Positions 14,058 to 59,069 are shown, numbered from the stretch's first letter. The stretch is 64,000 nt of DNA from Candidatus Tayloriibacteriota bacterium (GCA_943350765.1 CALRAJ010000001.1:191066-255065); one strand, 5' to 3'. Made by a program: numbers and translations. The notes: a model not told the origin generated them from the letters alone.

Positions 14058-14087
14058 ATCTAGTGTGCTTACAAAAATCGTTGAAGG

Positions 14088-40553: not shown

Positions 40554-41846
40554 TTAAGGTTTCTTATCGAGAAGCCATTTCCAGAGTGGTTTGAATTGTA
40601 TAGTCTTCCCGTCTTTTTTCACTTCTCGTTCCTCGTCCCATGTGAGTATGGTAAGCGTGTCTACATTTAATTCACCGCTTGCTTCAAATAGGGCTCTTGT
40701 TTCTCTCTGCTCGACATCTGAATTTATTGACTCATAGCAAACTTGTATCAGTTCGGTTACCACATGTCCTTGCTTGAGTACAAAATCGACTTCGCGTTCA
40801 TTACGAGTCTTATAATAGAACAATTCTCTATTTGGTTTAGCTCCACGCTTGACCAATTCAGTAAAGACCAAGTTTTCCATTAGTTTGCCTTTATCAGGAG
40901 AGTGTTGTACTGCTTTGGCAATTATAAAACCGTTATCAACAGCATAAACCTTTCGGGGAGATTTTATACGTTCCATTGATTTTGGAGAGTATCGTAGTAG
41001 AGAAAAGACTAGATACGCTTCCTCAAGATAATTTATATATTTCTCTATGGTTGTAGTGCTCTTTAAATTCAAAGCCTCCATCAGTTTTCTAACTGTATAT
41101 AAACTAGAAAAATTGTTTATCAGATGATTGGCTAGATTGCTTACCTGAGTTGAGAATTTAACTCTATGTCTTTTGACCACATCCTTGAAAAGTACTGCAT
41201 CAAGAAGAACATCAAGATAGTCTTTGGGGTCGACATTGCTTACCGCCACCTCGGGAAATCCACCGTTGAGCAGATAGTTCTCCGTAAGATTCAGAAGCTC
41301 GCCTCGTTGTCGTGGCAAAGAAGAGTATTCCTGATTTATTTGAAATTTTTTTGATCGAAGAAATTCATTGAAATCAAACGGTAGTATTTCTATGGGCATA
41401 TGTCTGCCAGTAAGGTGTGTAGCAAGTTCTTTCGAAAGCAATTGTGCGTTGGACCCAGTGAGTACCAAATTGTATCCGCCTCGGTGCAGACGATTTGCAA
41501 ATAACTCCCAACTTGGCAAGTTTTGAATCTCGTCAAATAAAATGGTTTTTACATCACTGCCATAAGTGGCGTGCAGTTCTTTCATTAGTTCATCCGTAGA
41601 TATGCCCCCCACACTCGACAATACTTCATCATCGAAATTGAAGTACATAAACGGACGGTCTTTCAAAAGTACGAGCGAAAATATTGATTTTCCAGCTCGT
41701 CTGGGACCGAGAACTACTTTTATCAAACTAGAATCCAGCCATTTTTTAGCAAATGGTTCTTTGGTTCGATCTATATAAGCAAGAGCTAAAAGCTCCTCTT
41801 TTTGTAGTTTTTGACCAGAAACTATATCTTTTAGGTTATTTTGCAT
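40554..41846 (-). CDS. AAA-family ATPase with a C-terminal DUF4143-like region
   Basis: Walker A (GPRRAGKS) and Walker B (ILFDEIQ). Length is about 430 aa, and the architecture is typical of the AAA_14/DUF4143 proteins. Confidence 0.6.
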   Translation of the reverse strand: MQNNLKDIVSGQKLQKEELLALAYIDRTKEPFAKKWLDSSLIKVVLGPRRAGKSIFSLVLLKDRPFMYFNFDDEVLSSVGGISTDELMKELHATYGSDVKTILFDEIQNLPSWELFANRLHRGGYNLVLTGSNAQLLSKELATHLTGRHMPIEILPFDFNEFLRSKKFQINQEYSSLPRQRGELLNLTENYLLNGGFPEVAVSNVDPKDYLDVLLDAVLFKDVVKRHRVKFSTQVSNLANHLINNFSSLYTVRKLMEALNLKSTTTIEKYINYLEEAYLVFSLLRYSPKSMERIKSPRKVYAVDNGFIIAKAVQHSPDKGKLMENLVFTELVKRGAKPNRELFYYKTRNEREVDFVLKQGHVVTELIQVCYESINSDVEQRETRALFEASGELNVDTLTILTWDEEREVKKDGKTIQFKPLWKWLLDKKP

Positions 41847-41883
41847 AGTATTTTACTTACACTGGGCAAAATAGGTTGTTTTT

Positions 41884-41908
41884 GACCAGTACAGATAGTA
41901 TACTGGTC
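41884..41908. promoter_or_regulatory. Palindrome GACCAGTA-CAGATAGTA-TACTGGTC in the divergent promoter region
   Basis: An 8-bp perfect inverted repeat centred between the divergently transcribed AAA ATPase and PrimPol-helicase genes. Confidence 0.35.
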
Positions 41909-41962
41909 AGGATTGGGGACGTCAACAAACAATGTGGGTAATCGAAAAATACCCTAAATTTT

Positions 41963-44116
41963 ATGATTTCTATCACCGAACAACATCTTGAGTTATTTAT
42001 ATCGCTGTTCCGAGGAAGAACGGATGTGTATGCGCGTCGGTGGGAAAAAGAAGGTCGGTCTGGATACAGCCCAGCATATGAATTTAATTGGGATGAGTTC
42101 ATGACACATAAGCGACGTGGTGGCTCGATGAAAGATTTTGAAAATAAGAGACTGATACCGCTGACTCGAGATGTTATTAGAAAACATCTTATTGGTCAGC
42201 ATGTGATTGGCATATATCCTATCCTGCCCGAAAACACATCGTACTTTATTGCGGCTGATTTTGATGGTGAAAATTGGTTGAACGATAGTAAGAATTTTCT
42301 TGTAGTTTGTGTAGAAGCAGGATTATCGGCATATCTTGAACAATCGCGCTCTGGAAATGGCGGTCATGTTTGGATTTTCTTTTCCGAAGCATATCCATGC
42401 TATAAAAGTCGGCAAGTTGCACTTGAACTTATTCGTAAGGCCTTTGATGTTTCTGAATTTGAAAAAGATGTTAGCTTTGATCGTTTATTCCCAAATCAAG
42501 ACACCTTGAGCAAAGCTGGTTTTGGTAATCTTATTGCTCTCCCCCTTCAAGGAAAATCGGTGGAAAATAGCAATGCTGTTTTTATTGATCCAGAGACAGC
42601 AAAACCATTTCCTGATCAATGGCAGTTTCTTGCTGATATCAAAAGACACACTGTTACTGAATTGGATTCAATACACCAAGAAATCTTTGCAGACACTGGA
42701 AAGCCAGTGTTAAAAACACGATCTGATAATGTATTAGAAATTTTTGTAAGTAATCAAATCAATTTAAGAAGAGCAGAACTTACTCCTACACTCATTCATT
42801 TTCTCAAAGCGGAACTCAATTTTCTTAATACTGAATATCTAACTAAACTAAGGTTGGGAAAATCAGTCTATGGTGTAGAAAAATACTTTAAATTGATTGA
42901 TGAAGAAGGTGACATCGTTTCCTTGCCTCGTGGGTTTTTACAAAAACTTGTCAACTTTCTCAAAGAAAATAATATCGCCTATAAAATACGATTTAATATC
43001 CCCTCTTTTGAGGAAACTCATTATAAAAGTCAAATAGAATTAAAGCCATCACAAATACCAATTATAGAGACAGCTACACAATCTGATCAAGGTGTAATTG
43101 TTGCTCCATCCGGCAGTGGCAAAACTATTATCGGCTTGGAACTCATGGCTCGTAAGCAATTACCAGCTCTTATTCTTGTCCATCGTAAGCAGTTACTAGA
43201 TCAATGGATTGAAAGAATACAGTCGTTTTTAGGAATTACAAAACTACATATTGGCCAATATTCGGGAACAAAGAAAAAGTTAGGCAAGCAGATAACCATC
43301 GGTTTATTGCAGAGCCTAGCTCGTAAAGGTGACGTGTCAGAATTTAGAGATAAATTTGGCACAATTATCGTAGACGAATGCCATCATATTCCAGCAGCTA
43401 CTTTTCGAAAAGTCATCGCACAACTCAATCCAAAATATATTTATGGCCTTACTGCTACACCAAAACGAAAACATAACGATGAAAAATTGATCTACGCCTA
43501 TATAGGCGAGATTATTGCTCACATGGAAGCTTTAGATACTACTCCGATTTCCAATCTCCCCTATCAATCACCAGAAATTTTAATCCGCACAACAAATTTG
43601 GCTGTACCCTTTAAGTTTTCTACTGACCATTTTCAACTCTTAGCTAAAGTCGTTTGTTTTGATACCACCAGAAATCAGATGATCATTGAGGATATTTTAA
43701 GTAAAGTTACTGATAACAAAAAATTGCTTGTGTTGAGCGAGCGTAAAGAGCATTTGGAAATTTTGGCTATGTACCTCAAAGGCAAATGCGAGACAATCGT
43801 TATTTCAGGAGATGATTCTGCTCCTAAAAGAAAATCGAAACTCAAACAGATTGAGTCCGGACATTATCAAGTCATTTTTTCCACGGGCCAGTTTTTTGGC
43901 GAAGGTCTGGATATTAGAAGTATTTCTTGTCTCATCTTGGCGTTTCCGTTTTCGTTTGAAGGTAAACTTGTTCAATATATGGGGCGTCTCCGAGATATCG
44001 GGGTTCAGAAAATAATCATTGACTATCGAGATACACAGATTCCATTTTTGGAGAAACAGTTCAAACAACGCGAACGATATTATAAAAAGCTTAAAGCTCA
44101 GATAAAATTTGCTTAA
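41963..44116 (+). CDS. Primase-polymerase (PrimPol/AEP) N-terminal domain fused to an SF2 DExH-box helicase
   Basis: N-terminal domain has IGIYPI...YFIAADFDGE (DxD) and SRSGNGGHVWIFF (sGxGxH), the hallmarks of bifunctional Prim-Pol. C-terminal domain has Walker A VIVAPSGSGKT, DECH box IIVDECHH, motif III LTATP and helicase-C motifs (FSTGQFFGEGLDI, QYMGRLRD). Confidence 0.65.
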   Translation: MISITEQHLELFISLFRGRTDVYARRWEKEGRSGYSPAYEFNWDEFMTHKRRGGSMKDFENKRLIPLTRDVIRKHLIGQHVIGIYPILPENTSYFIAADFDGENWLNDSKNFLVVCVEAGLSAYLEQSRSGNGGHVWIFFSEAYPCYKSRQVALELIRKAFDVSEFEKDVSFDRLFPNQDTLSKAGFGNLIALPLQGKSVENSNAVFIDPETAKPFPDQWQFLADIKRHTVTELDSIHQEIFADTGKPVLKTRSDNVLEIFVSNQINLRRAELTPTLIHFLKAELNFLNTEYLTKLRLGKSVYGVEKYFKLIDEEGDIVSLPRGFLQKLVNFLKENNIAYKIRFNIPSFEETHYKSQIELKPSQIPIIETATQSDQGVIVAPSGSGKTIIGLELMARKQLPALILVHRKQLLDQWIERIQSFLGITKLHIGQYSGTKKKLGKQITIGLLQSLARKGDVSEFRDKFGTIIVDECHHIPAATFRKVIAQLNPKYIYGLTATPKRKHNDEKLIYAYIGEIIAHMEALDTTPISNLPYQSPEILIRTTNLAVPFKFSTDHFQLLAKVVCFDTTRNQMIIEDILSKVTDNKKLLVLSERKEHLEILAMYLKGKCETIVISGDDSAPKRKSKLKQIESGHYQVIFSTGQFFGEGLDIRSISCLILAFPFSFEGKLVQYMGRLRDIGVQKIIIDYRDTQIPFLEKQFKQRERYYKKLKAQIKFA

Positions 44117-44240: not shown

Positions 44241-44425
44241 AATAAAGTTTAGTCTCGTCCTATCCCCGTAGCAAGCTATACCCTCGGACTACCTCGGCGG
44301 GGTATTAGGCGAGACATCTGGGTAAACTTTGTTGTATAGGTGTCGGCTCCGCCGACTTCATCCTCATTCTTGCGGATTCATCCCCGCGGCAAGCCGTCGG
44401 GGTATTCTCCACAATTACAATAAAC
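44241..44425 (+). ncRNA. Conserved structured element of about 185 nt, copy 1 (unknown class)
   Basis: About 93% identical to 55016-55199 in the same orientation. Internal complementary segments include AAAGTTTAG/TAAACTTTG, GTCTCGTCC/GGCGAGAC, CCCCG/CGGGG and GTCGG/CCGAC. No ORF. Confidence 0.4.
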
Positions 44426-44599
44426 TAAATACAAAAAAGCCCGAGTGGGCGATTTTTGTTTACATTTCCTTTTCTTGTTTATCTCCTAACCAAAGCGTGG
44501 TCGATCCCTAGCTGAATCTTTAGCCCTTCATTGGTGCATGTCACTACAAAGACTTTTTCATTAGTTTCAAAATACCACTTTTTACCCAGTCTTGTCAAT

Positions 44600-45538
44600 T
44601 TACCTCAGGTACCTATTTTTATTTGCTACATGCTCCTCAAAAGTTCTAGCGTAGTGCATCTCCCCTTTTTTATCTGAAAGATAGTATAAATAGGGAGTTT
44701 TGATAGGAGTTATTGCAGAAGAAATAGAATCTATTCCGGGGTTGGTAATAGGTGTAGGTGGCAGGCCTCTGTATAAATACAAATTGTACGGCGAATCTAT
44801 TTTTAAATCCTCTAAGGAAATATCCTCACCCTTCTTTTTGCCTTCTATATAAGCAAAAGTCACATCTACCTGAAGTGGCATTCCTATTGAAATTCGTTTC
44901 CATAAAATCCCAGCGATAATTCTCCTAGACTCTGTTGTTCGAGCCTCTTCTTCAAGAATCGAAGCCATCTTTATAACATCAGTCAATGGTTTAGCAAAAA
45001 CCTTCAAATCATTACTCATAGCAGCGACTCTCCTATCGAAATTGGCCAGCATCATATCAACCACTTCCTCCGCACTCACACTCGGCAAAATGTAATAGGT
45101 ATCCGGAAAGAGATAGCCCTCGTGTTTCTTTGCAATCTTAATAAATTCATCATACTTGAAACTTATTGAGTATTTTTCTAAAATACGCCCCACATCAACA
45201 ACTGTTGTTCCCTCTGGAATAGTAACTTTTATGGGAGTTAAACCGTATTCCCCAGTAGTTATTCTCGAAGCAATCTGTATTAGGTTTAAAGGTTTTTTAA
45301 AAATATAAACACCAGAGGCTAGATTTCCTTGATTTCCAGACGCAACGACCACCAACTTAAACAAAAAAGCCGACCTTATAACATGTTTCTCAGCTAGAGA
45401 GTTTGCGACACTAGAAAGTCCAGACCCTTTTGAAATGACAAAATAATCTCCCTTGGGAAAGGAGTCTGGTGCACGAATACCAATCAAGGAAAAAACAAAA
45501 AAAACCAAGACAATGTAGAGGATTACTTTTTTCCTCAT
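44600..45538 (-). CDS. mltG: Endolytic murein transglycosylase MltG (YceG family)
   Basis: N-terminal TM helix. Motifs EGYLFPDTYY and ...LYRGLPPTPITNPG... are characteristic of YceG/MltG. Confidence 0.75.
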   Translation of the reverse strand: MRKKVILYIVLVFFVFSLIGIRAPDSFPKGDYFVISKGSGLSSVANSLAEKHVIRSAFLFKLVVVASGNQGNLASGVYIFKKPLNLIQIASRITTGEYGLTPIKVTIPEGTTVVDVGRILEKYSISFKYDEFIKIAKKHEGYLFPDTYYILPSVSAEEVVDMMLANFDRRVAAMSNDLKVFAKPLTDVIKMASILEEEARTTESRRIIAGILWKRISIGMPLQVDVTFAYIEGKKKGEDISLEDLKIDSPYNLYLYRGLPPTPITNPGIDSISSAITPIKTPYLYYLSDKKGEMHYARTFEEHVANKNRYLR

Positions 45539-46740
45539 ATTGGCAGATTTGATGGGGCATCCGACTTTTTCGATGGAATCCTTGCGAGGTTTGGTGTTTG
45601 AGCCACGCTCCCAGGGAAGTGAAAGATGGTTGCTAGTTCCTCAGTCATAAGAATAAAGGGCTTTTCGGCAAAATACTTGTGTGGAGAATGAAAATAAGAT
45701 CTGGTGCGATACGCATCAAATATTTCTTTCTTGGCTGATAAAGTTTTACCACCTCCAAAATCCTGCCACGGATATTCATACCCACTGAGCCAACCTCGCT
45801 TGATTCCGTTTAAGTAATTTGAAGAATACTGACGAAATGCACCGTTCAAAGTGCCTGGTCGATTTTTATTAAATGAATCCTTGTCCGCAAGGTAAATACC
45901 ACGAATAGCACAGTCAAATGGAAACTTGCTGATACTACGCTCAATCGCTGCAATTTTCTCAATCTGTCCTTTTGTTGGATTTGGAAAACCGGGGTAATCT
46001 TTGTCTGTTTTTGGTGTAGCTTCGGCTCGTATCTTTTCGATTTCCTCTTTTGCCTCAGTCTGCCAATCTTTAGTCTTGAATAAATGACCTTCCTTCAAAC
46101 CCCTAGGCTTATGAGCCTGTATCAAAATCTGTATCCACATTTGCTCTCCTTTTTTGAGGGAACCCATTGACTCTAGGGTTGATGTGAGAGGGTCAATCTT
46201 AAACTCTTCTTTTGGATCCTTGTCCATACCATAATCAATATATGTTTTTATGGGATACACATCTGGTGCAGTGAGCTTGAAGCAAGCACCGAACAAATCT
46301 ACACGCGATGGGTCAAATATAAAACGAGATGTATAATCAGGAACTTCGTATATTTCCACAGTAGGGTATTGTGAGTATATCTGAGCTTCGATCAAATCCT
46401 TAAACTTTGATTGTGTCCAGATAAAAAAACGAATCTTACCCTCATCTGATACAATTTCGCAAGAAAACCAAGGACGAACCTTTCCATGGATATATGTTTC
46501 TAGCCAATTACCATCAGAAGGCATGTACAAAGCAGTAAATACTACCTCCATAGCAAGTGGTGACTTTAGTATTTCTCGAGGTATTTTGATTTCGAGAAGT
46601 GTACTGCCCTGTTTGATATTATAGCTCGTCCGAATGTATTTTATCCATATTTCAATAAATGCAAAGGCTACAAAAAGCAAAAGTACATAAGGCCAAATTA
46701 AACTAACATAAGACAAAACAGAATCCATGAGTAAATCCAT
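45535..46740 (-). CDS. Hypothetical membrane-anchored protein (401 aa)
   Basis: N-terminal TM helix. It overlaps the mltG start by 4 nt (translationally coupled). No recognisable motif. Confidence 0.4.
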   Translation of the reverse strand: MDLLMDSVLSYVSLIWPYVLLLFVAFAFIEIWIKYIRTSYNIKQGSTLLEIKIPREILKSPLAMEVVFTALYMPSDGNWLETYIHGKVRPWFSCEIVSDEGKIRFFIWTQSKFKDLIEAQIYSQYPTVEIYEVPDYTSRFIFDPSRVDLFGACFKLTAPDVYPIKTYIDYGMDKDPKEEFKIDPLTSTLESMGSLKKGEQMWIQILIQAHKPRGLKEGHLFKTKDWQTEAKEEIEKIRAEATPKTDKDYPGFPNPTKGQIEKIAAIERSISKFPFDCAIRGIYLADKDSFNKNRPGTLNGAFRQYSSNYLNGIKRGWLSGYEYPWQDFGGGKTLSAKKEIFDAYRTRSYFHSPHKYFAEKPFILMTEELATIFHFPGSVAQTPNLARIPSKKSDAPSNLPI

Positions 46741-46858
46741 AATAGATATTATAGCCTATAGTATATATTTTTGGTAGTAGACCAAATCGACAACCCACAA
46801 ATAAGAAAATCAGCTGTAAATTTAGCTGATTTTCCTTACACTTCTATAATTTAAAACT

Positions 46859-47890
46859 TTATTTAGATACCGAATACTTTGACTCCTTATCCTTTGTAAA
46901 ATGCTTTGGATTTTGAAGGTTTACCATAATTGTATTCTCTTTTACATATCTTTCCTTTAGAACCTTTTCAATAATATCCTCCTTTGGTAATGGACCATGC
47001 TTTTCGATGATCTTTTTTATCACATCTTTTACCACACCGCTCATATAGCCCCACTCAGCTAGGGCATATAGACCACGACCCACAAGTACAAAGCGAGGAT
47101 CCTTAATAAGCTCATTATGACATGTCGCTACATGAGCCTTTTTGTTAAAAACTTGAGAAATAGTTTTTGCAACATCTTTAAAATGGATTGGTGAGCCGTG
47201 TCGTCGAATAACTAAAAATGCGTAGTCTCGCATACCTTTTGTTTTTATGTTTGGAGAATGAGAAACACCCCATTCACCGAGTGGATTTTTGCCTATCGAT
47301 TTTGATAAATCTAACCAACGCTTCAAAACCTCCTGATTTTTGTATTTCTCTGAAATCTCCTTAGTATGTTCCAGAAATGAAGATATCATCTCTGACTCTG
47401 AAACAAGGTCATTCGTACTCAGCCCAGCATAAAGCTTTTTTAATGATCCTTCTACACTATCTGAAAGCTTTTCATCAACATACCATCTGTGACGAAAATG
47501 ATCGTCTTCCTTGCGTCGCTTAAACGAATCACCGATAACAAGGAGAAAGTTGATGTTATTTTGAGTACTTTCGTCTTTTGAAATATGTCCTAGAAGATCA
47601 TCCTCGACTACGATACCACCGAGTGAATGAAGTAACCCCTCGAGTTCCTCGAAGCTTGCTTTTTCAGCTTTATACGCATCAGATTTTCGAATATTATTTA
47701 TGGCATAATTTTCAATCTGACGAACCCTCTCCCGAGTAATACCGTAAATATCCCCAATGGCTTCGAGGGTCATTCTTTCGACTTTTTTACCTAGTCCATA
47801 TCGATTTACAATCACTTCACGGGCACGATCTGGTAAAGCTCCTAAAAGCCTCTTGACTACTTGTTTTGGTTTAAATTGAATAGTTGCCAT
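46859..47890 (-). CDS. Protein with an N-terminal sigma-70 region 4-like HTH; remainder unknown
   Basis: N-terminus ...LPDRAREVIVNRYGLGKKVERMTLEAIGDIYGITRERVRQIENYA closely resembles sigma-70 region 4.2. No regions 2 or 3 are present. The C-terminal 250 aa are uncharacterised. Confidence 0.5.
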   Translation of the reverse strand: MATIQFKPKQVVKRLLGALPDRAREVIVNRYGLGKKVERMTLEAIGDIYGITRERVRQIENYAINNIRKSDAYKAEKASFEELEGLLHSLGGIVVEDDLLGHISKDESTQNNINFLLVIGDSFKRRKEDDHFRHRWYVDEKLSDSVEGSLKKLYAGLSTNDLVSESEMISSFLEHTKEISEKYKNQEVLKRWLDLSKSIGKNPLGEWGVSHSPNIKTKGMRDYAFLVIRRHGSPIHFKDVAKTISQVFNKKAHVATCHNELIKDPRFVLVGRGLYALAEWGYMSGVVKDVIKKIIEKHGPLPKEDIIEKVLKERYVKENTIMVNLQNPKHFTKDKESKYSVSK

Positions 47891-48154
47891 AAATAATTAT
47901 TACTTAAATAAATCCAGGCATGGCCTGTATGTTACTATATGTATATCATTATAGTATACCTAAGTCAAGGAAGTGTCGAGGGCTTCTCAGTGAACCCAAA
48001 AAGGCCTATCGGTTAGGGATAGGCATCTGTAGACGAAGCCCTCGTATTTCTTTGGTAATAAATCTCTCAAGTCTCCTTCGCCACGCTGTAGCGTACTCGC
48101 GGAAGCGGGACTGCCCGTCTCCGAAGTCTCTTTTTTTGGTTCACTGCTACGCAA

Positions 48155-48190
48155 CAGACACGATTTTTCTACTGAAAAATCGTGTCTGTG
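48155..48190 (-). terminator. Hairpin ACAGACACGATTTTTC-TACT-GAAAAATCGTGTCTGT downstream of leuS (TTTCTACTGAAA-core family)
   Basis: 16-bp stem, followed on the minus strand by a T-rich tract (AAAAAAAGAGACTT on plus). Confidence 0.45.
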
Positions 48191-48236
48191 AGAATTCGAT
48201 TTTCTTCGATTTTATTCTTAAATCTACCCTACTACA

Positions 48237-51200
48237 TTACATTACAATATTTACCACTCTTCCTTGTACATAGATAACTTTCTTTATCTGCTGTCTATCT
48301 ATCCACTTTTTTACTTCTGGAATACCCTGTGCTTGATTTTTTACTACCTCCTCAGTCGAATCTTTTGACACAATAATCTGCCCGCGCACCTTACCATTTA
48401 TCTGCACTGCAATAGTAACCATTTCCTCAACAAGCTTTTCTGGGTCAAATACTGGCCATGTTGCTATGTGTATAGAATTTTTATTACCCATCGCCGACCA
48501 AAGCTCCTCAGCCATATGTGGAGCAAATGGAGCGAGCAACTGTAGTAACACCCCCATCTGCTCTTCTGTAACCACTGTTTTTTCCATCGCATTTAGTAAA
48601 ATCATCAGCGACGAAATCGCGGTATTAAAACTGAAACCTTGAATATCTTCTCCTACCTTTTTAATAGTTTTGTTTAGTACAATTTCAAATGTACCCGCTT
48701 CCAACCCACGATCTACCGTCTCATGTTTGGTGTCTGTAAATCTACACCCAAGCTTCCACACCCGTTCGAGAAATCTTCTCGAGCCAATCATGTTTTGTGT
48801 ACTCCACGCAATACTCTGCTCAAACGGACCCATAAACATTTCATACACTCGAAAAGTATCGGCACCGTATGTAGCCATGACATCATCCGGGTTTACTACA
48901 TTACCAAATCGCTTACTCATCTTGCGACCATCCTCACCCATGATGAGTCCTTGATTTTTTAGCTCGGTGAAAGGCTCACTCGTCGAAACTACACCAATAT
49001 CATAGAGAAACTTATGCCAAAAACGAGCATATATTAGATGTCGTGTTGCGTGCTCTGTACCACCCACATAGAGATCCACTGGTGCCCAATATTTTTCCTT
49101 TTTAGGATCTACCAATGCTTTTTTGTTTTTCGAGTCCATGTAGCGGAGATAGTACCAAGACGACCCAGCCCACTGTGGCATGGTGTTGGTCTCTCTTTTT
49201 GCCGGGCCTTTACATTGCGGACATTTAGTATTCACCCACTTTGAGATAGTCGCAAGTGGTGACTCCCCTGTACCAGTCGGCTCGTATGATTTTACATTCG
49301 GCAATTTTACTGGCAAATCTTTCTCTGGTACTGCCACTACACCTTGCCCGGCAGGATTGCTTAGGGCACATTTTTCACAATGTACGAGTGGTATCGGCTC
49401 GCCCCAATATCTCTGCCTTGAAAATACCCAATCACGGAGTTTGTATTTAGTAACCATTTTACCTCCGACAAATTCAGTAATTTTCTTTTTTGCTTCTTTG
49501 GAATTTAATCCGTCAAATTTATCAGAGTAAGTAAGTAGCCCTTCGCCAGTAAAACACTCTATCCACCCACTAGAAAGATTTTGATAAATAGAATTAAGTA
49601 AGTCTTTGTTGGGTACAGTAAAATCAAAGTTATCGACCCGCACATCTTCTAGTACCGAATTATTCCCCCATACAAATTTCTTACCGATAATGGTATCGAA
49701 GTATATTCCATTTTCCTCTTCTAACAAAAATAGATCTAGCCAAACTCCGTCCTTATCACTCCAGAAAGCTTTGTGATTTTTCCAAAAATGACTTCCAGTT
49801 TTTTCACCAGTACTCAATTTAGAATTAAATCCTCTATCTGCAAGCTGTTTCTCGATAATCTTCCAGCCATTTTGCGTAACAAAAACATCTACATCCGAAT
49901 GGAGACCAAATTTCTTGTCACTCTGCGCTAATCTAGCCATACCACCAACCAATACCATTATGAAGTCATGTTTTCTAGATAAATCAAATACTTCCTTTAA
50001 TAGTTTACAATTATTCTCCTTGTTTGTGTCGGAATAATTTTTCTCATCTTTAATTACACATCGAATCGGTATATTATACTTCTTTGCAAACTCCCAATCC
50101 CGCTCATCATGTGCCGGCACTGCCATAACCGCACCGGTACCGTAGTCCGCGAGTACATAGTCGGCAATAAACATTGGGATCTTTTCTTTTGTTGCAGGAT
50201 TTATCGCCCACACACCATCGAGCTTTACACCAGTCTTTTCCTTGCCTGCATCTGTTCGCTCTATCTCAGTTTTCTTTTTTGACAAAGCAACATACTGACC
50301 TACTGATTCGGCGTTTTTAAGGACTCCTTTATGATTTTCATCTATCGCAAGTGTTACCCAAGGATGCTCTGGAGAAAGCACGAGAGCTGTTGCCCCAAAA
50401 AGTGTGTCCGCACGAGTAGTAAATACTGGCACTAAACCCGGCTTCCCACCATTTTCAAATTCTACTGCAAATGATATTTCTGACCCCTCACTCCTACCAA
50501 TCCAGTTCCTCTGACTCTCTTTAATAGACTCAGGCCAATTTAGGCTATCAATATCTTTGAGCAGTCGATCCGCATAGTCTGTAATCCGCAAAACCCACTG
50601 ACGAATAGGCTTTTTTTCTACCACACTACTACAGCGTTCACACTTACCATCCTCTAGGTCTTCGTTAGCAAGGCCTGTCTTGCACGATGGACACCAGTTG
50701 ATCGGCTCGTTGGACTCGTATGCTAAACCTTTTTTAAAAAGTTGTAGGAAAATCCACTGTGTCCAGCGATAGTATTCTGGATCGGTAGTATCTACTTCAC
50801 GCGACCAGTCATAGTCTAGTCCGATGATCTCCAACTGTTCTTTATAGCGTTTAATATTTTTCTTTACCGCCACACTCGGGTGGATTTTATTTTTAATGGC
50901 ATAATTTTCAGCAGGAAGACCGAAGGCATCAAAACCCATCGGGTGTAATACATTAAAACCCTGCATTCGTTTGAAACGCGAGTAGACATCGGTAGCGATA
51001 TATCCCTTTGGATGACCGACATGGAGACCTTCTCCCGACGGGTACGGAAACATGTCTAAAATGTAGCATTTATTGTTTTTAGCTGTATCGGCAGATTTCG
51101 GCTCAACTGTTTTATACAGCTTTTTTCTCTCCCATATCCTTTGCCATTTAATTTCAATCCGTTTATGGTTATACTCCGCAAGTTTCTGCTTGCCATGCCG

Positions 51201-51260
51201 TAGCGTAATCGCGGAGGATGGACACTTTTTTTCTATCTTTATATGGTCGTATTGCTTCAT
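48237..51260 (-). CDS. leuS: Leucyl-tRNA synthetase with an extra inserted domain of about 150 aa
   Basis: HIGH region (PYPSGEGLHVGH), editing-domain motifs, AHDERDWEFA and KMSKR are present. Between AHDERDWEFAKKYNIPI and YKLRDWVFSRQRYWGEPIP there are about 200 aa, versus about 70 aa in E. coli LeuRS. The extra region includes HDFIMVLVGGMARLAQSDKKFGLHSDVDVFV. Confidence 0.85.
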   Translation of the reverse strand: MKQYDHIKIEKKCPSSAITLRHGKQKLAEYNHKRIEIKWQRIWERKKLYKTVEPKSADTAKNNKCYILDMFPYPSGEGLHVGHPKGYIATDVYSRFKRMQGFNVLHPMGFDAFGLPAENYAIKNKIHPSVAVKKNIKRYKEQLEIIGLDYDWSREVDTTDPEYYRWTQWIFLQLFKKGLAYESNEPINWCPSCKTGLANEDLEDGKCERCSSVVEKKPIRQWVLRITDYADRLLKDIDSLNWPESIKESQRNWIGRSEGSEISFAVEFENGGKPGLVPVFTTRADTLFGATALVLSPEHPWVTLAIDENHKGVLKNAESVGQYVALSKKKTEIERTDAGKEKTGVKLDGVWAINPATKEKIPMFIADYVLADYGTGAVMAVPAHDERDWEFAKKYNIPIRCVIKDEKNYSDTNKENNCKLLKEVFDLSRKHDFIMVLVGGMARLAQSDKKFGLHSDVDVFVTQNGWKIIEKQLADRGFNSKLSTGEKTGSHFWKNHKAFWSDKDGVWLDLFLLEEENGIYFDTIIGKKFVWGNNSVLEDVRVDNFDFTVPNKDLLNSIYQNLSSGWIECFTGEGLLTYSDKFDGLNSKEAKKKITEFVGGKMVTKYKLRDWVFSRQRYWGEPIPLVHCEKCALSNPAGQGVVAVPEKDLPVKLPNVKSYEPTGTGESPLATISKWVNTKCPQCKGPAKRETNTMPQWAGSSWYYLRYMDSKNKKALVDPKKEKYWAPVDLYVGGTEHATRHLIYARFWHKFLYDIGVVSTSEPFTELKNQGLIMGEDGRKMSKRFGNVVNPDDVMATYGADTFRVYEMFMGPFEQSIAWSTQNMIGSRRFLERVWKLGCRFTDTKHETVDRGLEAGTFEIVLNKTIKKVGEDIQGFSFNTAISSLMILLNAMEKTVVTEEQMGVLLQLLAPFAPHMAEELWSAMGNKNSIHIATWPVFDPEKLVEEMVTIAVQINGKVRGQIIVSKDSTEEVVKNQAQGIPEVKKWIDRQQIKKVIYVQGRVVNIVM

Positions 51261-51284
51261 AAGGACTAATAGTATACTAAATGG

Positions 51285-51425
51285 GAGCGGGAGCCAAGAG
51301 CCATACTGGTGGCGAAAGTCCTGAGCTTAGCAAAGCGTAGGGCAAGAGCCATACAGGAGCCATACTGGTGGCGGGAGTACTAAAGCTCACCAGAGCGTAG
51401 TACTGGTAGCGAAGATGCTGAGTTT
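51285..51425. repeat. Dispersed intergenic repeat, family 1, tandem-unit copy E
   Basis: Repeated units AGAGCCATACTGGTGGCG[AG][AG]AGT.CTGAGCT.AGCA.AGCGTAG, between two and three units. Confidence 0.6.
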
Positions 51426-51494
51426 AGCAAAATAAAGTACAAGCGAGTGAGAAAAAGTTAATAGATTATAGTTTTTAGTTTATAGACGTATAGA

Positions 51495-51523
51495 TTGACA
51501 ATATATATAAAATAGCATAATGT
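51495..51523 (+). promoter_or_regulatory. Candidate sigma70-type promoter (TTGACA - 17 nt - TAATGT)
   Basis: About 25 nt upstream of the ATG of the 51546 ORF. Confidence 0.3.
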
Positions 51524-51545
51524 TCATTCCAGTTGCACAATAGCT

Positions 51546-51872
51546 ATGAAAACATATACCTCGTCCCGTCGGAATACGCTCCTTGGGTTGCTCTGTGCAG
51601 CCCTCGGATCCATCAAAAGTCTTGGGGCAAAATCCCCCGAACCGAAATACTACCGAGTGCAGTGGAAGAAACTCCACGACGAGCCCGTCGGACCTGGGGA
51701 TATGTGGGTCTGCCACGAAACGGACCCCAACACCCCAAAACGGCAAAGTGAGAACTGCTACAACCTGCAGATGCAGGCCATTCACGGAAGTCATTGGGGC
51801 ACACCGGCTAAGAGTATCAGTCGGGGCAATGGTGACTATTGGAGACCGACTGGACTCGTTCCTGTTTTTTGA
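51546..51872 (+). CDS. Small Tat-signal secreted protein, paralog A (unknown function)
   Basis: Twin-arginine motif SRRNTLLGLL and a conserved core PKYYRVQWKKLHDEPVGPGDMWV.H.TDPNTP shared with 52212-52538. GC-richer than the genome background. Its own promoter and terminator are present. Confidence 0.55.
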   Translation: MKTYTSSRRNTLLGLLCAALGSIKSLGAKSPEPKYYRVQWKKLHDEPVGPGDMWVCHETDPNTPKRQSENCYNLQMQAIHGSHWGTPAKSISRGNGDYWRPTGLVPVF

Positions 51873-51887
51873 TCAATCAACTATCGC

Positions 51888-51915
51888 ACACTGTCTTTGA
51901 GACAGTTTTTTATTT
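51888..51915 (+). terminator. Rho-independent terminator
   Basis: ACTGTCT-TTG-AGACAGT followed by TTTTTTATTT. Confidence 0.55.
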
Positions 51916-52211
51916 AAAAAAATACGAAAAACCATAGTTTTCCGAATGCCAGAAAAGCCAATAAATGGGCCATTTGAAGGGCTCAACAGCCCTGTTGAGC
52001 CGTTCAAATGGCTGGTTACAACCTAGCGAGAACGGTTCTGACCGGGTGAAAGCCCATCTGGTTTCATTGAAATGACTAATTACTAGACTAGTTTACAATG
52101 TGGACATTTGAGCTTGTCTCACATTTGCAATATAATTTGACAATACATAAAGAAATAATGTATGCTACCCTATAGCCTGAACAAACATTGGTAACAAAAG
52201 ATTAATCTATT

Positions 52212-52538
52212 ATGAAGCAAGATGCTGTCATTACTGGTCAGTCCCGTCGGAATACGCTCCTTGGGTTGCTCTATGCCGTCCTTGGACTGAAGTTGGAAGT
52301 TGAAGCAAAAACTCCCGTGCCCAAATATCAAAGGGTGCAGTGGAAGAAACTCCACGACGAGCCCGTCGGACATGGAGATATGTGGGTTATGCACGCAACG
52401 GATCCAAACACTCCGGATAACCTACACTTCCTTGAAATGCACAGGGCTGGTAAACATTTCCACGGAATTCCAGCAAAGGATATACTCTATCCCAATGGTA
52501 ATTTTTGGAGGCCAGTTGCCATCGTTGATGTCAACTGA
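52212..52538 (+). CDS. Small Tat-signal secreted protein, paralog B
   Basis: SRRNTLLGLL twin-arginine motif. About 50% identical to 51546-51872 over the full length (KYQRVQWKKLHDEPVGHGDMWVMHATDPNTP). Confidence 0.55.
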   Translation: MKQDAVITGQSRRNTLLGLLYAVLGLKLEVEAKTPVPKYQRVQWKKLHDEPVGHGDMWVMHATDPNTPDNLHFLEMHRAGKHFHGIPAKDILYPNGNFWRPVAIVDVN

Positions 52539-52552
52539 TAAAAGATACCCTC

Positions 52553-52580
52553 AGCACTGCCCCAAAAGCAGTTTTTTATT
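52553..52580 (+). terminator. Rho-independent terminator
   Basis: GCACTGC-CCCAAAA-GCAGT followed by TTTTTTATTT. Confidence 0.5.
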
Positions 52581-52584
52581 TAAA

Positions 52585-53016
52585 TCATTTGCTATCAACA
52601 AATCCGATCTTTTTGACAAAAGCTGGAATAAACTTCTGATGACCTATAAATATTTCTTTTGGTAAATTGTCTAAATCAAACCATTTCCATTCTGCAAATT
52701 TATCTGGCTCTGTTACCTTTAGTTCACCTGACCAATTTTTTGCAAGAAAATTGATATGCACATAATGCACTTTCTCCAATGGATCATTTACTAGATGTAA
52801 AAATTCTAATTCATTTGATATTATACCAGTCTCCTCCTCCAATTCTCTTTTAGCTGCACCTGCTAGTGATTCTCCATATTCAAAATGACCTCCTGGTAAA
52901 CACCATGTTCCATAGCCAGTTTTTCCTATTCTTTTACCAAATAAAATCTTTCCGTCTTTAAAAACAAATATATTTACACCGATCTTTGGATATGATTTTT
53001 GATCGTTTGAGTTCAT
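52585..53016 (-). CDS. NUDIX hydrolase
   Basis: Nudix box GGHFEYGESLAGAAKRELEEETGI. Confidence 0.8.
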   Translation of the reverse strand: MNSNDQKSYPKIGVNIFVFKDGKILFGKRIGKTGYGTWCLPGGHFEYGESLAGAAKRELEEETGIISNELEFLHLVNDPLEKVHYVHINFLAKNWSGELKVTEPDKFAEWKWFDLDNLPKEIFIGHQKFIPAFVKKIGFVDSK

Positions 53017-53227
53017 TGTGATTAGATAATATATTAAATCAATTTACCCAGGCTCGTGCCTAAACCGCAGTAGCGGATTGGTATCTACGCTTCGCTTCGA
53101 CCCTTGGCTGGCTCACTCTGGGTCATTGAATTTAAAATATAATTTCTAAAGAAATTATATTTTAAATTCAATCTGCCCTGCATCTCTCTTTACAGGCCCG
53201 ATGCTGGATCTCGGATTTAAAATCCTA

Positions 53228-54325
53228 CTAGATTTTAAACTCTACGACATCCCCATCTTTTACCACATACTCCTTTCCCTCTGTCCGTACCAAACCCTTT
53301 TCTCGAGCCACTCCGTATGAGCCTGAGGCGAGAAGCTTGTCCCACTCGATAACTTCCGCACGCACAAACTTATCTTTAAAATCCGTGTGGATCGCCGTAC
53401 CAGCCAGAGGTGCTGTCCAACCTTTTCGTATTGTCCAAGCTCGAGTCTCCTCGACTCCAGTCGTAAAATAGGTAATCAGGTCGAGCACTTCATATCCAGC
53501 GCGAATAAGTGTATCGATACCATCGTCCTTTGCCCCTAACCCATCTCGCATTTCTTTTTTATCCGCATCAGATAGGTCCTTGAGCTCATGTTCAAAACCC
53601 GCGTCCACCACCACCCATTTTGCGCCAGTCTTTTTAAAATGTTCGATCAGTCGGGTATACCTTGCATCATTTATCTCATCAAGATTTTTGCCTCCAGCTT
53701 TTTTGTTTAAAACATACAAAAATGGCTTTGCGGTCAGCAAGTGCAAATGTTTGAGTAATGGTTTTTCAAATTCATCTGTAGTAACGGTACTGACGAGCTT
53801 CTCTGCCTCAAGAGCATTTTTTAATTTCTCTAGCAGTCCATTTTCAATCACTGCCTCTTTTTTGCCACGCTTTATATCACTTTGAATGTTTGAAAGACGC
53901 TTGGTCACTGTTTGAAGGTCGGCGAGGATAAGCTCGAGATTGATAACCTCGATATCATTGAGTGGGTCTATTTTACCATCGACATGGATTACATTATCGT
54001 CTTCAAAAATACGCACGACCTCAGCAATAGCATCCGTCTCACGGATATTAGTGAGGAATTGATTACCCAAACCCTCACCTGCCGAGGCACCTTTTACGAG
54101 CCCTGCAATATCCACAAACTCCACCGCCGCAGGCACCGTTTTTAATGTTTTAGAAAATGCAGACAACTTCCAAAGACGCTCATCTGGTACGGCTACTACA
54201 CCTACAGAAGGGTCAATTGTACAAAAAGGGTAGTTTTCAGCAGGCACACTCTTTTTAGTAAGTGCGTTAAAAAGCGTTGATTTACCGACATTTGGAAGTC
54301 CGACAATACCGATGGATAGTGACAT
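53228..54325 (-). CDS. ychF: Ribosome-binding ATPase YchF (Obg-family GTPase)
   Basis: [23 protein letters not shown], then the TGS/YchF C-terminal domain (…DFIRAEVI…). Length 365 aa. Confidence 0.85.
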
Positions 54326-54814
54326 AGGAACACACTATAACACAATTTTAATTAGGAATGAAATAATAAATACAAAAGGCGTCCGTGTGTGGACACGAAC
54401 GCCTGAGTGAGAACAGCCAAAATGGCCGTGAACGAAACGAATTTGCAACGAAATACTCAAAGCCCAGGGGCCTTTACCCTGTCCTGGCTTCCACAAACCA
54501 GGGGCTTGAGCCATTTCGCTGCTCCCAAAAAACAGGATGGAGTGATGCTCATAATACCAGCACTTTCAACCTGCTCGATCCGCAACTGATAATACATGCC
54601 CACAAGGAGCTCGTAGAAGAATCTCATAGCTTTCTTTCTGCGACCGACATACTTTATATCATACTGCATCACAAAATACAAGTATCTAAAAAAGAACTTG
54701 ATATTTTCAGTCCAAAGGCTAAACAATGTATGTTTGAGCCTTTGGGTCGTTTTTACCCCGAAATCTCATTACTGCCTATTCTGTAGGGTGCCTCTACAAA
54801 GCCATTTGAACGGC

Positions 54815-54945
54815 TCAAGGAGCGTAGGCGACGAAGATACAGGAGCCATATCGGTGGCGGGAGTAATGAGCTCAGCAGAGCGAATGTGACGGTCTAGTAG
54901 GATTCGTTACAAGCACAGGGCTGTTGAGCCGTTAGATTTTACCTA
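54815..54945. repeat. Dispersed intergenic repeat, family 1 copy C
   Basis: GACGAAGATACAGGAGCCATATCGGTGGCGGGAGTAATGAGCTCAGCAGAGCGAATGTGACGG..GTTACAAGCACAGGGCTGTTGAGCCGTTAG. Near-identical to copy A. Confidence 0.65.
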
Positions 54946-55015
54946 TATACATGGGTTTGAATAATACATACTAGAAAATTCATATCCGTCTTTTATAATT
55001 GCATGGTATTTAACA

Positions 55016-55199
55016 AATAAAGTTTAGCCTCGTCCTATCCCCGTAGCAAGCTATTCCCTCGGATTACCTCGGCGGGGTATTAGGCGAGACGACAGGGTAA
55101 ACTTTGTTGCAAGAGTGTCGGCTCCGCCGACCTCATCTTCATTCTTGCGGATTCATCCCCGCGGCAAGCCGTCGGGGTATTCTCCACAATTGCAATAAA
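55016..55199 (+). ncRNA. Conserved structured element of about 185 nt, copy 2 (unknown class)
   Basis: About 93% identical to 44241-44425. Substitutions cluster in predicted loop or bulge segments (for example ATCTGGG versus GACAGGG, and GTATAGG versus GCAAGAG). Confidence 0.4.
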
Positions 55200-55245: not shown

Positions 55246-55536
55246 CTAAGCCTTTTTCTTACTGAGACCCATTTTCTTCAGAGCATCCTCCGGAGCGCTG
55301 TTGCTCTCGATGACGCCTGGCGGTGCGATGATAGCACCGCCACGACACAACCTGAAGCTGATTTTACCTTCCGTTACCAGCTTATTAACCTCCTTCACGG
55401 GATCCAAACCGGGAAAATACTCACGGAAAGCTGGGTTGAACCCAGAATAGACCGTGTGAATAGTCTTCATATTTCCTTTGACGAGTCTTTCGATTGCCAA
55501 GAGGACGAACTGCTCTACCGTCAGCTTTTCACTCAT
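55246..55536 (-). CDS. Hypothetical protein (96 aa), GC-richer cassette
   Basis: First gene of a compact three-gene, same-strand cassette whose GC content is clearly above the local background. Confidence 0.4.
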   Translation of the reverse strand: MSEKLTVEQFVLLAIERLVKGNMKTIHTVYSGFNPAFREYFPGLDPVKEVNKLVTEGKISFRLCRGGAIIAPPGVIESNSAPEDALKKMGLSKKKA

Positions 55537-55558
55537 AGTTTTTGTAGTTCTGTTTTGA

Positions 55559-56455
55559 TTACTGAACTAGCCCCATGGCACTGAGAGCCTTTTTCCCAGC
55601 ATTGACCGCTGGTTTCCGAGCTCTCTTCACAGAAACAACGACACCTTCTTCGGCAGCGGTCGCATGTAGGTTAAACCGCTTGCACCACTCGTCGTAGCGT
55701 TGATTTTGACGCGCGATGAGCTTTCCGTAGTGATCCATGACCTTTTTAACATCCGGAGGCTGAATAACCCCATCAGTAAGATCCCTCGCGACATGCTGGA
55801 GGTTGTGACCGACCACCGCACCTGTCTTTGCGAACTGGGCACCAAGCCGTGACTTCAGTTGACCAATACTGCCAGACTTGGCGCTGACCTTGTCAACTTT
55901 TCCGGTCATCGCCTCAGTGATTGATTCGGCCTTGACCCCAAACCGATCTGCGGCTTGAGGAACAGACATGCTCTCTTCAAGCACAGCTTTGATTGCCAGT
56001 TTGAGTCGTGCTTTGCCCTGAGCAGACTGGACTTCATCGAGATAATTCCTGATAAGTCTTGCAGGAAATCCGACCTGTTCACCAACATTGTGAATAATCA
56101 TGGCTCGGGTCTCACCAGCCGTCAAAAGCAGACCCATAACATGACCGATGTCCGTAGATGAGGGTGGGAGTGCCCCACCAACATTGCACTTGAGAGCACG
56201 AACAATCATTTCGGCTCTTGAACTAAAGTGCTGGAATTCGCACTCTACATCCTTAAACTCCATTGCTCGGTACGCAGCAAGCCGATGACGACCATCGACA
56301 AGCTCATTTCCGGCATCAGACAGTATAAGTGGTGGAAGTGTCACACCAGCTGTAATCAAGTCAACAAGATATTCCACATGTGCCTGATTGAGATGGAGAC
56401 GAACCACGAATGTCTCTTTGATCTCGCTGACTTTCAATTTTACTGTTTTCTTCAT
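55559..56455 (-). CDS. ParB/Sulfiredoxin-like nuclease-domain protein
   Basis: ParB-type motif ELVDGRHRLAAY within an N-terminal domain of about 90 aa. The remainder is uncharacterised. GC-richer than the flanks. Confidence 0.55.
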   Translation of the reverse strand: MKKTVKLKVSEIKETFVVRLHLNQAHVEYLVDLITAGVTLPPLILSDAGNELVDGRHRLAAYRAMEFKDVECEFQHFSSRAEMIVRALKCNVGGALPPSSTDIGHVMGLLLTAGETRAMIIHNVGEQVGFPARLIRNYLDEVQSAQGKARLKLAIKAVLEESMSVPQAADRFGVKAESITEAMTGKVDKVSAKSGSIGQLKSRLGAQFAKTGAVVGHNLQHVARDLTDGVIQPPDVKKVMDHYGKLIARQNQRYDEWCKRFNLHATAAEEGVVVSVKRARKPAVNAGKKALSAMGLVQ

Positions 56456-56492
56456 ACTCTACCTTTTGCTTTTCTTTTTTTACTGTTGCTGT

Positions 56493-56750
56493 TTACTTTG
56501 CCCGAATCGGTTGTGCCGACCGAGCCCGCCAACCCTTGGCGAACTTTTCAATCCCCATCAGATAAACCATTTGGCCTTTTGACGGCGCATGATCATCTTG
56601 ATAAGCACTGATTGAAAAGGTTACTGTTGTATTCACAGGTAAACCGGATTCCGAAAAAGGGGCTTTGAGTCTTGTGACCGCATACGCCCTTTCTCCTCCT
56701 CCAATCACCGATGTCACAACAGCTTCAACTAATGAAGTTTTCTGCTCCAT
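56493..56750 (-). CDS. Hypothetical protein (85 aa), GC-richer cassette
   Basis: Third ORF of the cassette. No motif. Confidence 0.35.
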   Translation of the reverse strand: MEQKTSLVEAVVTSVIGGGERAYAVTRLKAPFSESGLPVNTTVTFSISAYQDDHAPSKGQMVYLMGIEKFAKGWRARSAQPIRAK

Positions 56751-57944: not shown

Positions 57945-58020
57945 ACGATATAAAATAAATATCCAAAACTACGGAATACCGTCGCAGGTGTATCTTTTAA
58001 ATGGACTTCGGAGACGGGTA

Positions 58021-58150
58021 GTCGAGACTTGAGAGATTTCTTACCAAAGAAATACTCGTGGCCCGTCCACAGGTGTCTATCCCTAACTGATAGACCTTTA
58101 AAAGATACGCCTAGAAAGGTATTTCGTAGTTTTGGTAATCGAGTAGACTA
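58021..58150. repeat. MITE-like modular repeat, family 2, mosaic copy
   Basis: Shares CCGTCCACAGGTGTCTATCCCTAA with 14160-14190 and TTTAAAAGATACGCCTAGAAAGGTATTTCGTA with 6561-6600. Confidence 0.5.
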
Positions 58151-58841: not shown

Positions 58842-59069
58842 ATACGATATCGAACACCTAGGTACCCTGAACTACGAAAATCTATTTAAAATATACACCT
58901 TCAAAGTATTTAGTGATTTGGGGTCATAAACTTAAACGGCTAAACACTAGCGTTTAGCCGTTTAAAGCTAGTACTAGAGCCATATTTTAGCCTAAAGGCT
59001 CAACGGCGCGCCGTTGAGCCTTTAAGCTATTTTCTCCTCCACCACCCACCTCCCCATAGAATCTAAAAA

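Follow-up and report, generated by a model that had tools for sequence, protein, structure and literature searches.

The DNA analysed here is a 64-kb stretch from a Candidatus Tayloriibacteriota bacterium (GCA_943350765.1 CALRAJ010000001.1:191066-255065; hereafter the window), and the subject of the analysis is a 184-nucleotide (nt) non-coding repeat found in it at positions 44241-44424 (copy 1) and 55016-55199 (copy 2). A repeat search of the window detected these two copies only. When copy 1 was used as query, copy 2 was recovered with E = 7e-76 (blastn, sensitive) and 4e-49 (nhmmer), and neither program returned a third copy above noise. The two sequences are co-oriented, start 10,775 nt apart and align without gaps at 93% identity; the homology has sharp edges on the left (AATAAAGTTTAG) as well as on the right (CAATTRCAATAAA).

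From left to right, the genes around copy 1 are MnmA, an AAA_14/DUF4143 ATPase, a fusion of an AEP-TOTE primase-polymerase with an SF2 helicase, copy 1 itself and MltG/YceG. A DUF8128 protein, a sigma-r4/HARE-HTH protein, LeuRS, a NUDIX hydrolase and YchF follow. Next come a 920-nt non-coding stretch with copy 2 at its end, a 96-amino acid (aa) gene and a 298-aa gene (both on the − strand) and, beyond the latter, a flavodoxin-like gene, RpoD and DnaG. Copy 1 begins 125 nt past the stop codon of the primase-polymerase/helicase gene (41963-44116, +; 717 aa) and sits between this gene and the convergent MltG/YceG gene (44600-45538, −). The end of copy 2 is 47 nt from the stop codon of the 96-aa gene (55246-55536, −), which has the 298-aa gene as its neighbour. 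These surroundings look like an ordinary small bacterial chromosome, and the layout, both copies included, is identical in same-species contigs from four public assemblies (L001-L004). A first-pass annotation, made from the sequence alone, had described two collinear copies of about 93% identity and the genes beside them; the copies are real, and the description of their surroundings is accurate because gene calls and same-species contigs agree.

Fold and border motifs of the repeat

Each copy is made up of a left-end domain and a right-end domain only. In what follows coordinates refer to the + strand of copy 1; adding 10775 gives those of copy 2. Copy 1 starts with a hexamer AATAAA (44241..44246) that is presumed to be a left-flank target or transposon-adjacent motif, and this is followed by the presumed mobile unit itself, GTTTAG...CAATAAA (44247..44424, 178 nt), which contains no open reading frame (ORF) and lacks terminal inverted repeats as well as a target duplication. 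In copy 2, comparison of flanks places the hexamer AATAAA at 55016..55021 and the unit, with the same domains, at 55022..55199. The ends of the unit, GTTTAGTCTCG... and ...CAATTACAATAAA, are not complementary, hence the absence of terminal inverted repeats.

Helices were assigned by counting pairs in 22 aligned members of the family. The left-end domain (44247..44333), delimited by pair counts on alignment A1 and by single-stranded DNA (ssDNA) and RNA folds, is closed by P1 (44241-44251 with 44323-44333), the outer part of which is formed by the flanking hexamer and positions 44328-44333. Inside P1 are found P2 (44252-44262 with 44306-44315) and hairpin A (44264-44268 with 44298-44302, plus 44269-44271 with 44276-44278), whose loop is CAAG and whose stem contains a 19-nt insert on its 3' side. 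The right-end domain (44370..44424, from the alignment and pair counts) contains P_R (44370-44376 with 44408-44414), hairpin B (44380-44389 with 44394-44405; CAAG loop, bulged T44397) and the right terminus ACAATAAA (44417-44424), placed by border comparison. A central hairpin, GTCGGC-TCC-GCCGAC (44342..44356; 44342-44347 with 44351-44356), displays double changes in five of its six pairs, and 98.4% of its cells are paired. Hairpins A and B are variants of one bulged hairpin, ATCCCCG-NN-GCAAGC-N'N'-(A/T)-CGGGGTATT, which each copy holds twice, once toward each end. The first occurrence spans 44262-44308 with the 19-nt insert; the second is compact (pattern at 44373-44399, stem of hairpin B at 44380-44405). 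Hairpins A, at 44262-44306, and B, at 44380-44405, are both kept in the 22 members, where they share ATCCCCG..GCAAGC..CGGGGTATT.

The repeats are real and their fold is kept by selection. Standard pairs make up 96.7% of the pair cells in the 22 members, against 87% in shuffled alignments and 32-49% when partners are slid; double changes occur at 23 pairs, and none of 500 shuffles attained any of the observed measures. Covariation is strong in five or six helices, and the variation in length among members is due to insertions confined to hairpin loops. The window copies behave in the same manner, since only 1 of their 13 differences falls within the 104 core stem positions (hypergeometric P = 2e-4). 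Of the 12 located outside the core stems, two compensate each other (44335 T>C and 44417 A>G). As RNA, the repeat folds with z = -3.7 (+ strand) and -4.5 (− strand); with DNA parameters, too, both copies fold better than their shuffles (z = -3.5). A covariance model built from the 184-nt family (R1) scores copy 1 at 204 bits and copy 2 at 198 bits. The first-pass annotation was therefore right to see a structured element under selection and not a passive duplicate, and the covariation among homologues that it proposed to look for is present. Most of the complementary segments that it listed are real helices (AAAGTTTAG/TAAACTTTG, GTCTCGTCC/GGCGAGAC, CCCCG/CGGGG and GTCGGC-TCC-GCCGAC); the last pairing on its list, CTTGCGG..CCGCGGCAAG, is better drawn as TTGCGGA/TCCACAA, which encloses the second CCCCG..CGGGG hairpin.

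An internal segment, TTTGTTGN (44328-44335), is able to form two alternative pairings, one with the flanking AATAAA, as part of P1, and the other with the terminal N'CAATAAA (44417-44424). This guide-like segment reads TTTGTTGT in copy 1, where it complements the flank AATAAA (with one conserved G.T) or the right terminus ACAATAAA; in copy 2 it reads TTTGTTGC (55103-55110) and the right terminus is GCAATAAA (55192-55199). The competing pairing of the segment with the right terminus was proposed independently by RNAalifold. It is accompanied by covariation at N/N' (pair types UA 11, GC 5, CG 2), and the window copies differ at this very position (T/A in copy 1, C/G in copy 2).

The borders were defined by comparing flanks. 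Of the 22 aligned copies, 21 have (A)ATAAA as their left flank; 20 alignment rows extend to the right terminus, and 19 of these have CAATAAA there, divergence resuming straight after. The 22 copies compared show no target duplication; the left AATAAA is the only sequence that their otherwise unrelated flanks have in common. One copy (L028) has CTCCCA instead of AATAAA on the left, while a sister copy in the same genome has AATAAA, and in a family of Gracilibacteria copies the two outer positions of the left hexamer vary although the interiors are identical. It is mainly because of these two cases that we infer the left hexamer to be flank, i.e. target, and not element. Judging from these sequences, the AATAAA target appears to lie outside the mobile unit even though the outermost helix makes use of it.

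Relatives of the repeat in other genomes

The 184-nt form was found, complete or partial and always with unrelated flanks, at about 30 further loci in genomes and metagenomes of the candidate phyla radiation (CPR; Patescibacteria). Seven or eight of these are genome loci identified with nhmmer, in Taylorbacteria, Saccharibacteria, Zambryskibacteria, an unclassified metagenome-assembled genome (MAG) with three copies and a Patescibacteria single-cell genome; a scan with the left-end 21-mer added 21 metagenome loci. An exact 31-mer from the right end had no match in viral contigs. Some genomes carry single copies in unrelated places, for instance between the core genes YebC and RuvC (L137). At this last locus two left-end matches 1.1 kb apart flank the RuvC gene; a cargo-carrying element was considered there and rejected.

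A scan for the hairpin pattern, with one genome per species, extended the distribution much further (at least 120 loci). Among the matches listed are archaea (Methanosarcina, with many copies that are often at contig ends, other methanogens and Woesearchaeota) and a wide range of bacteria: Anaerolineae, Nitrospira, SAR324, Gracilibacteria, Saccharibacteria and other CPR groups, as well as Rickettsia, Synechococcus, Verrucomicrobiota and several gammaproteobacteria. The stem is in two parts, 5 bp of G+C and 3 bp of variable sequence, with a bulged base between them; the loop is CAAG, and the free positions NN/N'N' covary (CA/TG, CC/GG, CT/AG, AG/CT, GG/CC, TA/TA).

ORFs situated within 2.5 kb of hairpin matches were clustered. 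One of the few clusters common to several unrelated genomes corresponds to a 147-148-aa protein, which is a Y1 HUH transposase (Pfam Y1_Tnp, E = 1e-35 to 1e-38 for the intact ORFs of loci L113, L011 and L105). In Methanosarcina spelaei (L113) and in a gammaproteobacterium (L105), this TnpA gene lies between two hairpin-bearing ends in an element of about 620 nt; in Pseudoalteromonas (L011), a 556-nt contig cut at the right end has the TnpA gene directly beside the left-end hairpin. Immediately left of these autonomous elements the flank reads AATAAA, and they terminate on the right in AAATAAA; in Methanosarcina the corresponding sequences are AAAT and GAAAT. The same hairpins bracket a gene annotated as 'IS200/IS605 family transposase' on a plasmid of Ca. 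Megaera that has 27 matching places. Loci L113, L105, L011 and L146 agree with the 184-nt form in hairpin motif, border motif and layout. Three more loci have degraded TnpA ORFs beside the hairpin (L106, L087 and L046). The gammaproteobacterial autonomous element has no DNA match in E. coli genomes and is therefore not a classical enterobacterial IS200 at the DNA level.

Miniature forms occur alongside the autonomous ones. Methanosarcina spelaei harbours an ORF-less element of about 208 nt of which both ends are as in its TnpA-bearing insertion sequence (IS), with one head-to-tail tandem; it is for Methanosarcina that the ends common to miniature and autonomous element are shown directly. Other ORF-less families, with members of 150-200 nt (150-210 nt overall), were found in a Gracilibacteria MAG (6 copies), an Anaerolineaceae MAG (6 copies), Synechococcus UW140 (4 copies) and a gammaproteobacterial MAG (3 copies). 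Within each family the interiors are identical and the flanks unrelated, and the Anaerolineaceae and Synechococcus families have the left-flank and right-terminus motifs of the 184-nt form.

Two Methanosarcina loci deserve separate mention. In L085 (6350-6764) the miniature element is present as the head-to-tail tandem, and L055 (3015-3102) displays a partial duplication of the right end, whose ...GAAAT is fused to an internal site preceded by ...TCAT. Both junctions resemble products of TnpA cleavage at a pseudo-site.

When model R1 was applied to these relatives, matches resembling the whole element were obtained in Woesearchaeota (E ~ 1e-7), Anaerolineaceae (2e-5), Bacteroidetes (2e-5) and Rickettsia, and the left end of the Megaera IS was matched at E ~ 3e-4.

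Origin of the repeats and competing explanations

The TnpA proteins of the IS200/IS605 family bind subterminal imperfect palindromes on one single strand (PMC3201880, PMC5027513). In IS608, insertion takes place 3' of a short specific target, with 19 nt separating the left cleavage site from its palindrome and 10 nt the right one; cleavage occurs 3' of the left flank motif and of a related right-terminal motif, both read through internal guide pairing, and the excised strand is a circle that inserts 3' of the same target motif without duplication (PMC3201880, PMC5027513). Gene-less elements moved in trans, the palindrome-associated transposable elements (PATEs), are also known (PMC10055086, PMC3119063). 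Against this background, the conserved structure, the hairpin shared with TnpA-bearing elements, the border motifs and the occurrence of multiple copies amid unrelated flanks, all of them directly observed, make it very probable that each repeat is a gene-less, non-autonomous miniature of an IS200-group insertion sequence (IS200/IS605 family), akin to PATEs or to miniature inverted-repeat transposable elements (MITEs). The main hairpin is, by likeness to IS608, the predicted ssDNA binding site of the Y1 HUH transposase TnpA. Since the hairpins are transposon-end domains in this reading, the covariation would reflect selection on DNA hairpins for mobility.

By the same analogy with IS608 we infer binding and cleavage by TnpA, mobilisation in trans and the active strand, and a cycle can be proposed as follows. 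Both domains would fold when the active strand becomes single-stranded, for example at the replication fork, and TnpA provided in trans by an autonomous relative would bind both hairpins. The enzyme would then make one cut after the flanking AATAAA and another after the terminal CAATAAA, in each case on the 3' side, with both sites presented through pairing with the internal TTTGTT(G)N segment. The excised strand would close into a circle, with the junction ...ACAATAAA|GTTTAG..., and re-insert 3' of another AATAAA with no target duplication. The empty sites expected from such a cycle are ...CTACGGGGTAATAAA|CTAAATACAAAAAAGCC... for copy 1 and ...TATTTAACAAATAAA|AAACCACGAAC... for copy 2.

The + strand is favoured as the active one, although the matter is not settled. 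In its favour, the flank motif is located 5' of the element, as is the rule in the family, and the conserved G.T of P1 and of the guide pairing would become an A.C mismatch on the other strand. In addition, the bulged base is on the 3' side of the hairpin stem. The bulge of the IS608 hairpin is on the 3' stem side as well.

Several observations weigh against the miniature-IS interpretation or parts of it. No TnpA gene was found in the 64-kb window (tblastn) or at any of the approximately 30 loci with the 184-nt form, and no autonomous element with full CPR-type ends was found among these loci. The link between the CPR form and the autonomous elements, as read from the sequences, consists of the hairpin of about 27 nt, the border motifs and the two-domain layout, not of end-to-end homology; R1 matches the left end of the Methanosarcina IS weakly (13.5 bits, E ~ 0.1). 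A single attempt to match the exact empty-site pattern of copy 1 in JGI metagenomes gave no hit. As for the strand, tnpA in the autonomous relatives is antisense to the presumed top strand and sense on the − strand. The elements are commoner on the C-rich strand (77 versus 49 loci), a lean that is not significant when counted per genome (42 versus 29, P = 0.15) and that is not due to motif supply, because AATAAA is equally frequent on both strands. Guides in IS608 are located 5' of the hairpin foot, but the guide-like segment of the repeat is found 3' of its left-end domain. Finally, conservation of structure does not by itself discriminate ssDNA from RNA.

Some of these departures from IS608 would find a place in a bolder proposal, which we regard as unlikely: that this IS200 lineage reads its cleavage sites in a way of its own, one long guide (TTTGTTGN) alternating between canonical helices with the flanking target and with the right terminus, that its hairpin is nested in extra helices, that the TnpA-binding hairpin of about 27 nt has stayed almost invariant from CPR bacteria to methanogens, and that the miniatures are perhaps also stable RNAs co-opted by the host.

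The first-pass annotation preferred an RNA gene. Under that explanation the copies would be structured non-coding RNA genes, or cis-acting RNA elements of the 3' untranslated region or close to a terminator, spread by duplication or horizontal transfer. The strong covariation and the RNA folding scores reported above agree with it. So do the possible read-through into copy 1 from the primase-polymerase/helicase gene, the hairpin with a T run after copy 1 and a promoter-like site (10/12 matches) just left of copy 2. IS200 ends are, moreover, a source of small regulatory RNAs in Salmonella. Yet there is no promoter common to both copies, the promoter-like site of copy 2 being in flank sequence, and the outer helix draws on nucleotides that are outside the repeated unit. 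Flanks are unrelated at about 30 loci, no neighbour gene is conserved, the tandem and multi-copy behaviour is typical of a transposon, and the same hairpin pair brackets Y1 TnpA genes in the autonomous relatives. Rfam offers no family either, as the first-pass annotation had anticipated: the whole window had no match at gathering scores (Rfam 15), and permissive E-values gave noise only for both copies (E >= 0.9). The RNA-gene explanation is, in our view, improbable.

Lower still stands the idea that the repeats are gene-less IS200/IS605 derivatives that continue to encode a guide RNA (omega-RNA/reRNA) for a TnpB or IscB located elsewhere in the genome. It draws on the omega-RNA-carrying PATEs described in Geobacillus (PMC10055086), and the right-end domain directly adjoins flanking DNA, the position expected for a TnpB guide. 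An omega-RNA-bearing PATE is very unlikely here because the autonomous relatives that were found are all tnpA-only and, at about 620 nt, have no space for tnpB or iscB; the Rfam HEARO and IS605-orfB motifs do not match, and no recurrent large ORF adjoins the copies.

The weakest explanation takes the copies to be diverged attL and attR sites bounding an integrated element, or else a nick site that resembles an origin and is linked to the primase-polymerase/helicase and 'ParB-like' genes. Its appeal comes from the fact that the copies are direct repeats, each beside a gene typical of mobile or defence DNA, but it is contradicted and hardly credible: the 10.6-kb interval encodes the core proteins MltG, LeuRS, NUDIX hydrolase and YchF, which means that the copies are no att sites, none of the proteins scanned looked like an integrase, the 7% of differences is scattered along the copies with no spared core, and other genomes have single copies such as the one between YebC and RuvC. 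The supposed link to the neighbouring genes does not hold up either. By tblastn, neither the primase-polymerase/helicase nor the 298-aa gene has a homologue at any of the 141 other element loci; searches of these loci with the 96-aa gene and the DUF4143 ATPase were likewise negative, save for one weak match of the ATPase, and MltG had a few matches, none of them adjacent to the element. No neighbour gene is conserved, and the finding carries no special message about the primase-polymerase/helicase or the helix-turn-helix (HTH) genes nearby.

Further candidates were rejected. The differences between the copies are not adenine-specific, contrary to those of the template/variable repeat pair of a diversity-generating retroelement; regarding a group II intron, a retron or a CRISPR-linked RNA, no reverse transcriptase or cas gene was noticed near the copies, and the Rfam scan gave no domain V. 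The window contains no tRNA or tmRNA.

The repeats are thus most likely an ordinary kind of mobile element, an IS200-derived miniature transposon in CPR bacteria, and not a new class of RNA. The main value of the analysis is a correction: a covarying, multi-helix intergenic repeat can mimic a new RNA and be explained by the ends of a single-strand DNA transposon. Scans for new RNAs should mask the AATAAA-bordered hairpin ATCCCCGNNGCAAGC...CGGGGTATT. It also appears that CPR genomes contain IS200-derived miniature elements and that bacteria and archaea very distant from one another have kept one predicted TnpA-binding hairpin nearly unchanged. The way in which a hexamer target pairs with a guide-like segment may be of interest for re-programming insertion of the IS608 type.

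Surrounding sequences and comparison with known systems

The primase-polymerase/helicase fusion matches Pfam PF22548 (1.5e-82) and the PADLOC model for CRISPR-associated PrimPol (2e-77), and the AAA_14/DUF4143 ATPase, divergent from it, matches PADLOC PDC-S01 (3e-100). Together the two genes (40554-44116) make up a candidate defence locus, from which the TPR-OB and TBP partners known in TOTE systems are absent. On the other side, the cassette at 55246-56750 has 50% G+C in a genome of about 41%. Its 298-aa protein, called 'ParB-like' in the first-pass annotation, has HTH_psq as its only Pfam match (2e-5) and a DGRHR motif seen by eye; its 96-aa and 85-aa neighbours match no family. LeuRS (48237-51260) is long for its family at 1007 aa, and residues ~400-560 resemble an inserted domain. 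The stretch that follows is gene-poor except for a 678-nt direct repeat (51263-52580) with two paralogous 108-aa ORFs (51546-51872 and 52212-52538) that have signal-peptide-like starts.

Other repeats are dispersed in the window. A second non-coding family, about 125-140 nt long, has three copies that are 86-91% alike, at 10156-10316 (+), 27236-27378 (−) and 54792-54933 (+), and more weakly related sequences are located at 20555-20618 and 51288-51351. Its outer stem is GGCTCAA...TTGAGCC, and no Rfam model matches it. One of its copies is 80 nt left of copy 2, and the family is possibly a structured RNA or a further miniature mobile element. Recurrent palindromes, AAAGGCTCAACG...CGTTGAGCCTTT and AAACGGCTAAACA...TGTTTAGCCGTTT, resemble repetitive extragenic palindromes (REPs) or shared terminators (1031-1082, 5432-5473, 12936-12988, 27411-27463, 54695-54746, 58924-58965 and 58975-59030). 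A third family, a long hairpin (CCCCCAATTACGAAATA...), occurs in both orientations at 6458-6601, 14073-14164, 48000-48075 and 57960-58099, with arms that are up to 98% complementary and kilobases apart (pairs I2, I3 and I7-I9).

Among known systems, the 184-nt repeat is closest to the IS200 group and to IS608 of Helicobacter pylori, with which it shares subterminal imperfect hairpins at both ends and the lack of both terminal inverted repeats and target duplication (PMC3201880, PMC5027513). Insertion beside a short specific motif, of which the right terminus holds a second occurrence, and an internal segment complementary to both cleavage motifs, are further likenesses, and the autonomous elements in which this very hairpin occurs have a Y1_Tnp transposase gene, as in the IS200 group. 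The window copies differ in having no tnpA. In comparison with IS608, the motif has six nucleotides (AATAAA) and not four or five; the guide-like segment, which enters a long canonical helix, is placed 3' of the left-end domain and not, as in IS608, 5' of the hairpin foot; two more helices (P1 and P2) enclose the left hairpin; and tnpA of the autonomous relatives is antisense to the presumed active strand.

PATEs and PATE-like elements of haloarchaea and Geobacillus are similar in being gene-less, at most a few hundred nt long, multi-copy and reduced to both ends, and in their presumed mobilisation in trans by TnpA (PMC10055086, PMC3119063). Those described derive mostly from tnpB-bearing IS605/IS1341 elements, often with omega-RNA, whereas the window family probably derives from the tnpA-only IS200 type and is found in CPR bacteria. 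REPs and bacterial interspersed mosaic elements (BIMEs), together with their REP-associated tyrosine transposases (RAYT, TnpA-REP), are likewise short structured extragenic repeats, and a Y1 HUH enzyme recognises their ssDNA hairpins (PMC3333891, PMC8266576), as is predicted for the window element. However, REPs are single hairpins of 20-40 nt with a conserved GTAG/CTAC foot that flank a single-copy domesticated gene, while the unit in the window is a two-domain element of 178 nt with end hairpins matching those of a multi-copy IS. Lastly, the HEARO/IscB omega-RNA and the IS605-orfB motifs of Rfam are covarying, multi-helix non-coding elements linked to IS200/IS605, as is the present repeat; unlike these candidate RNAs, the window element is matched by no Rfam model at its gathering score, or beyond noise at E <= 5-10.

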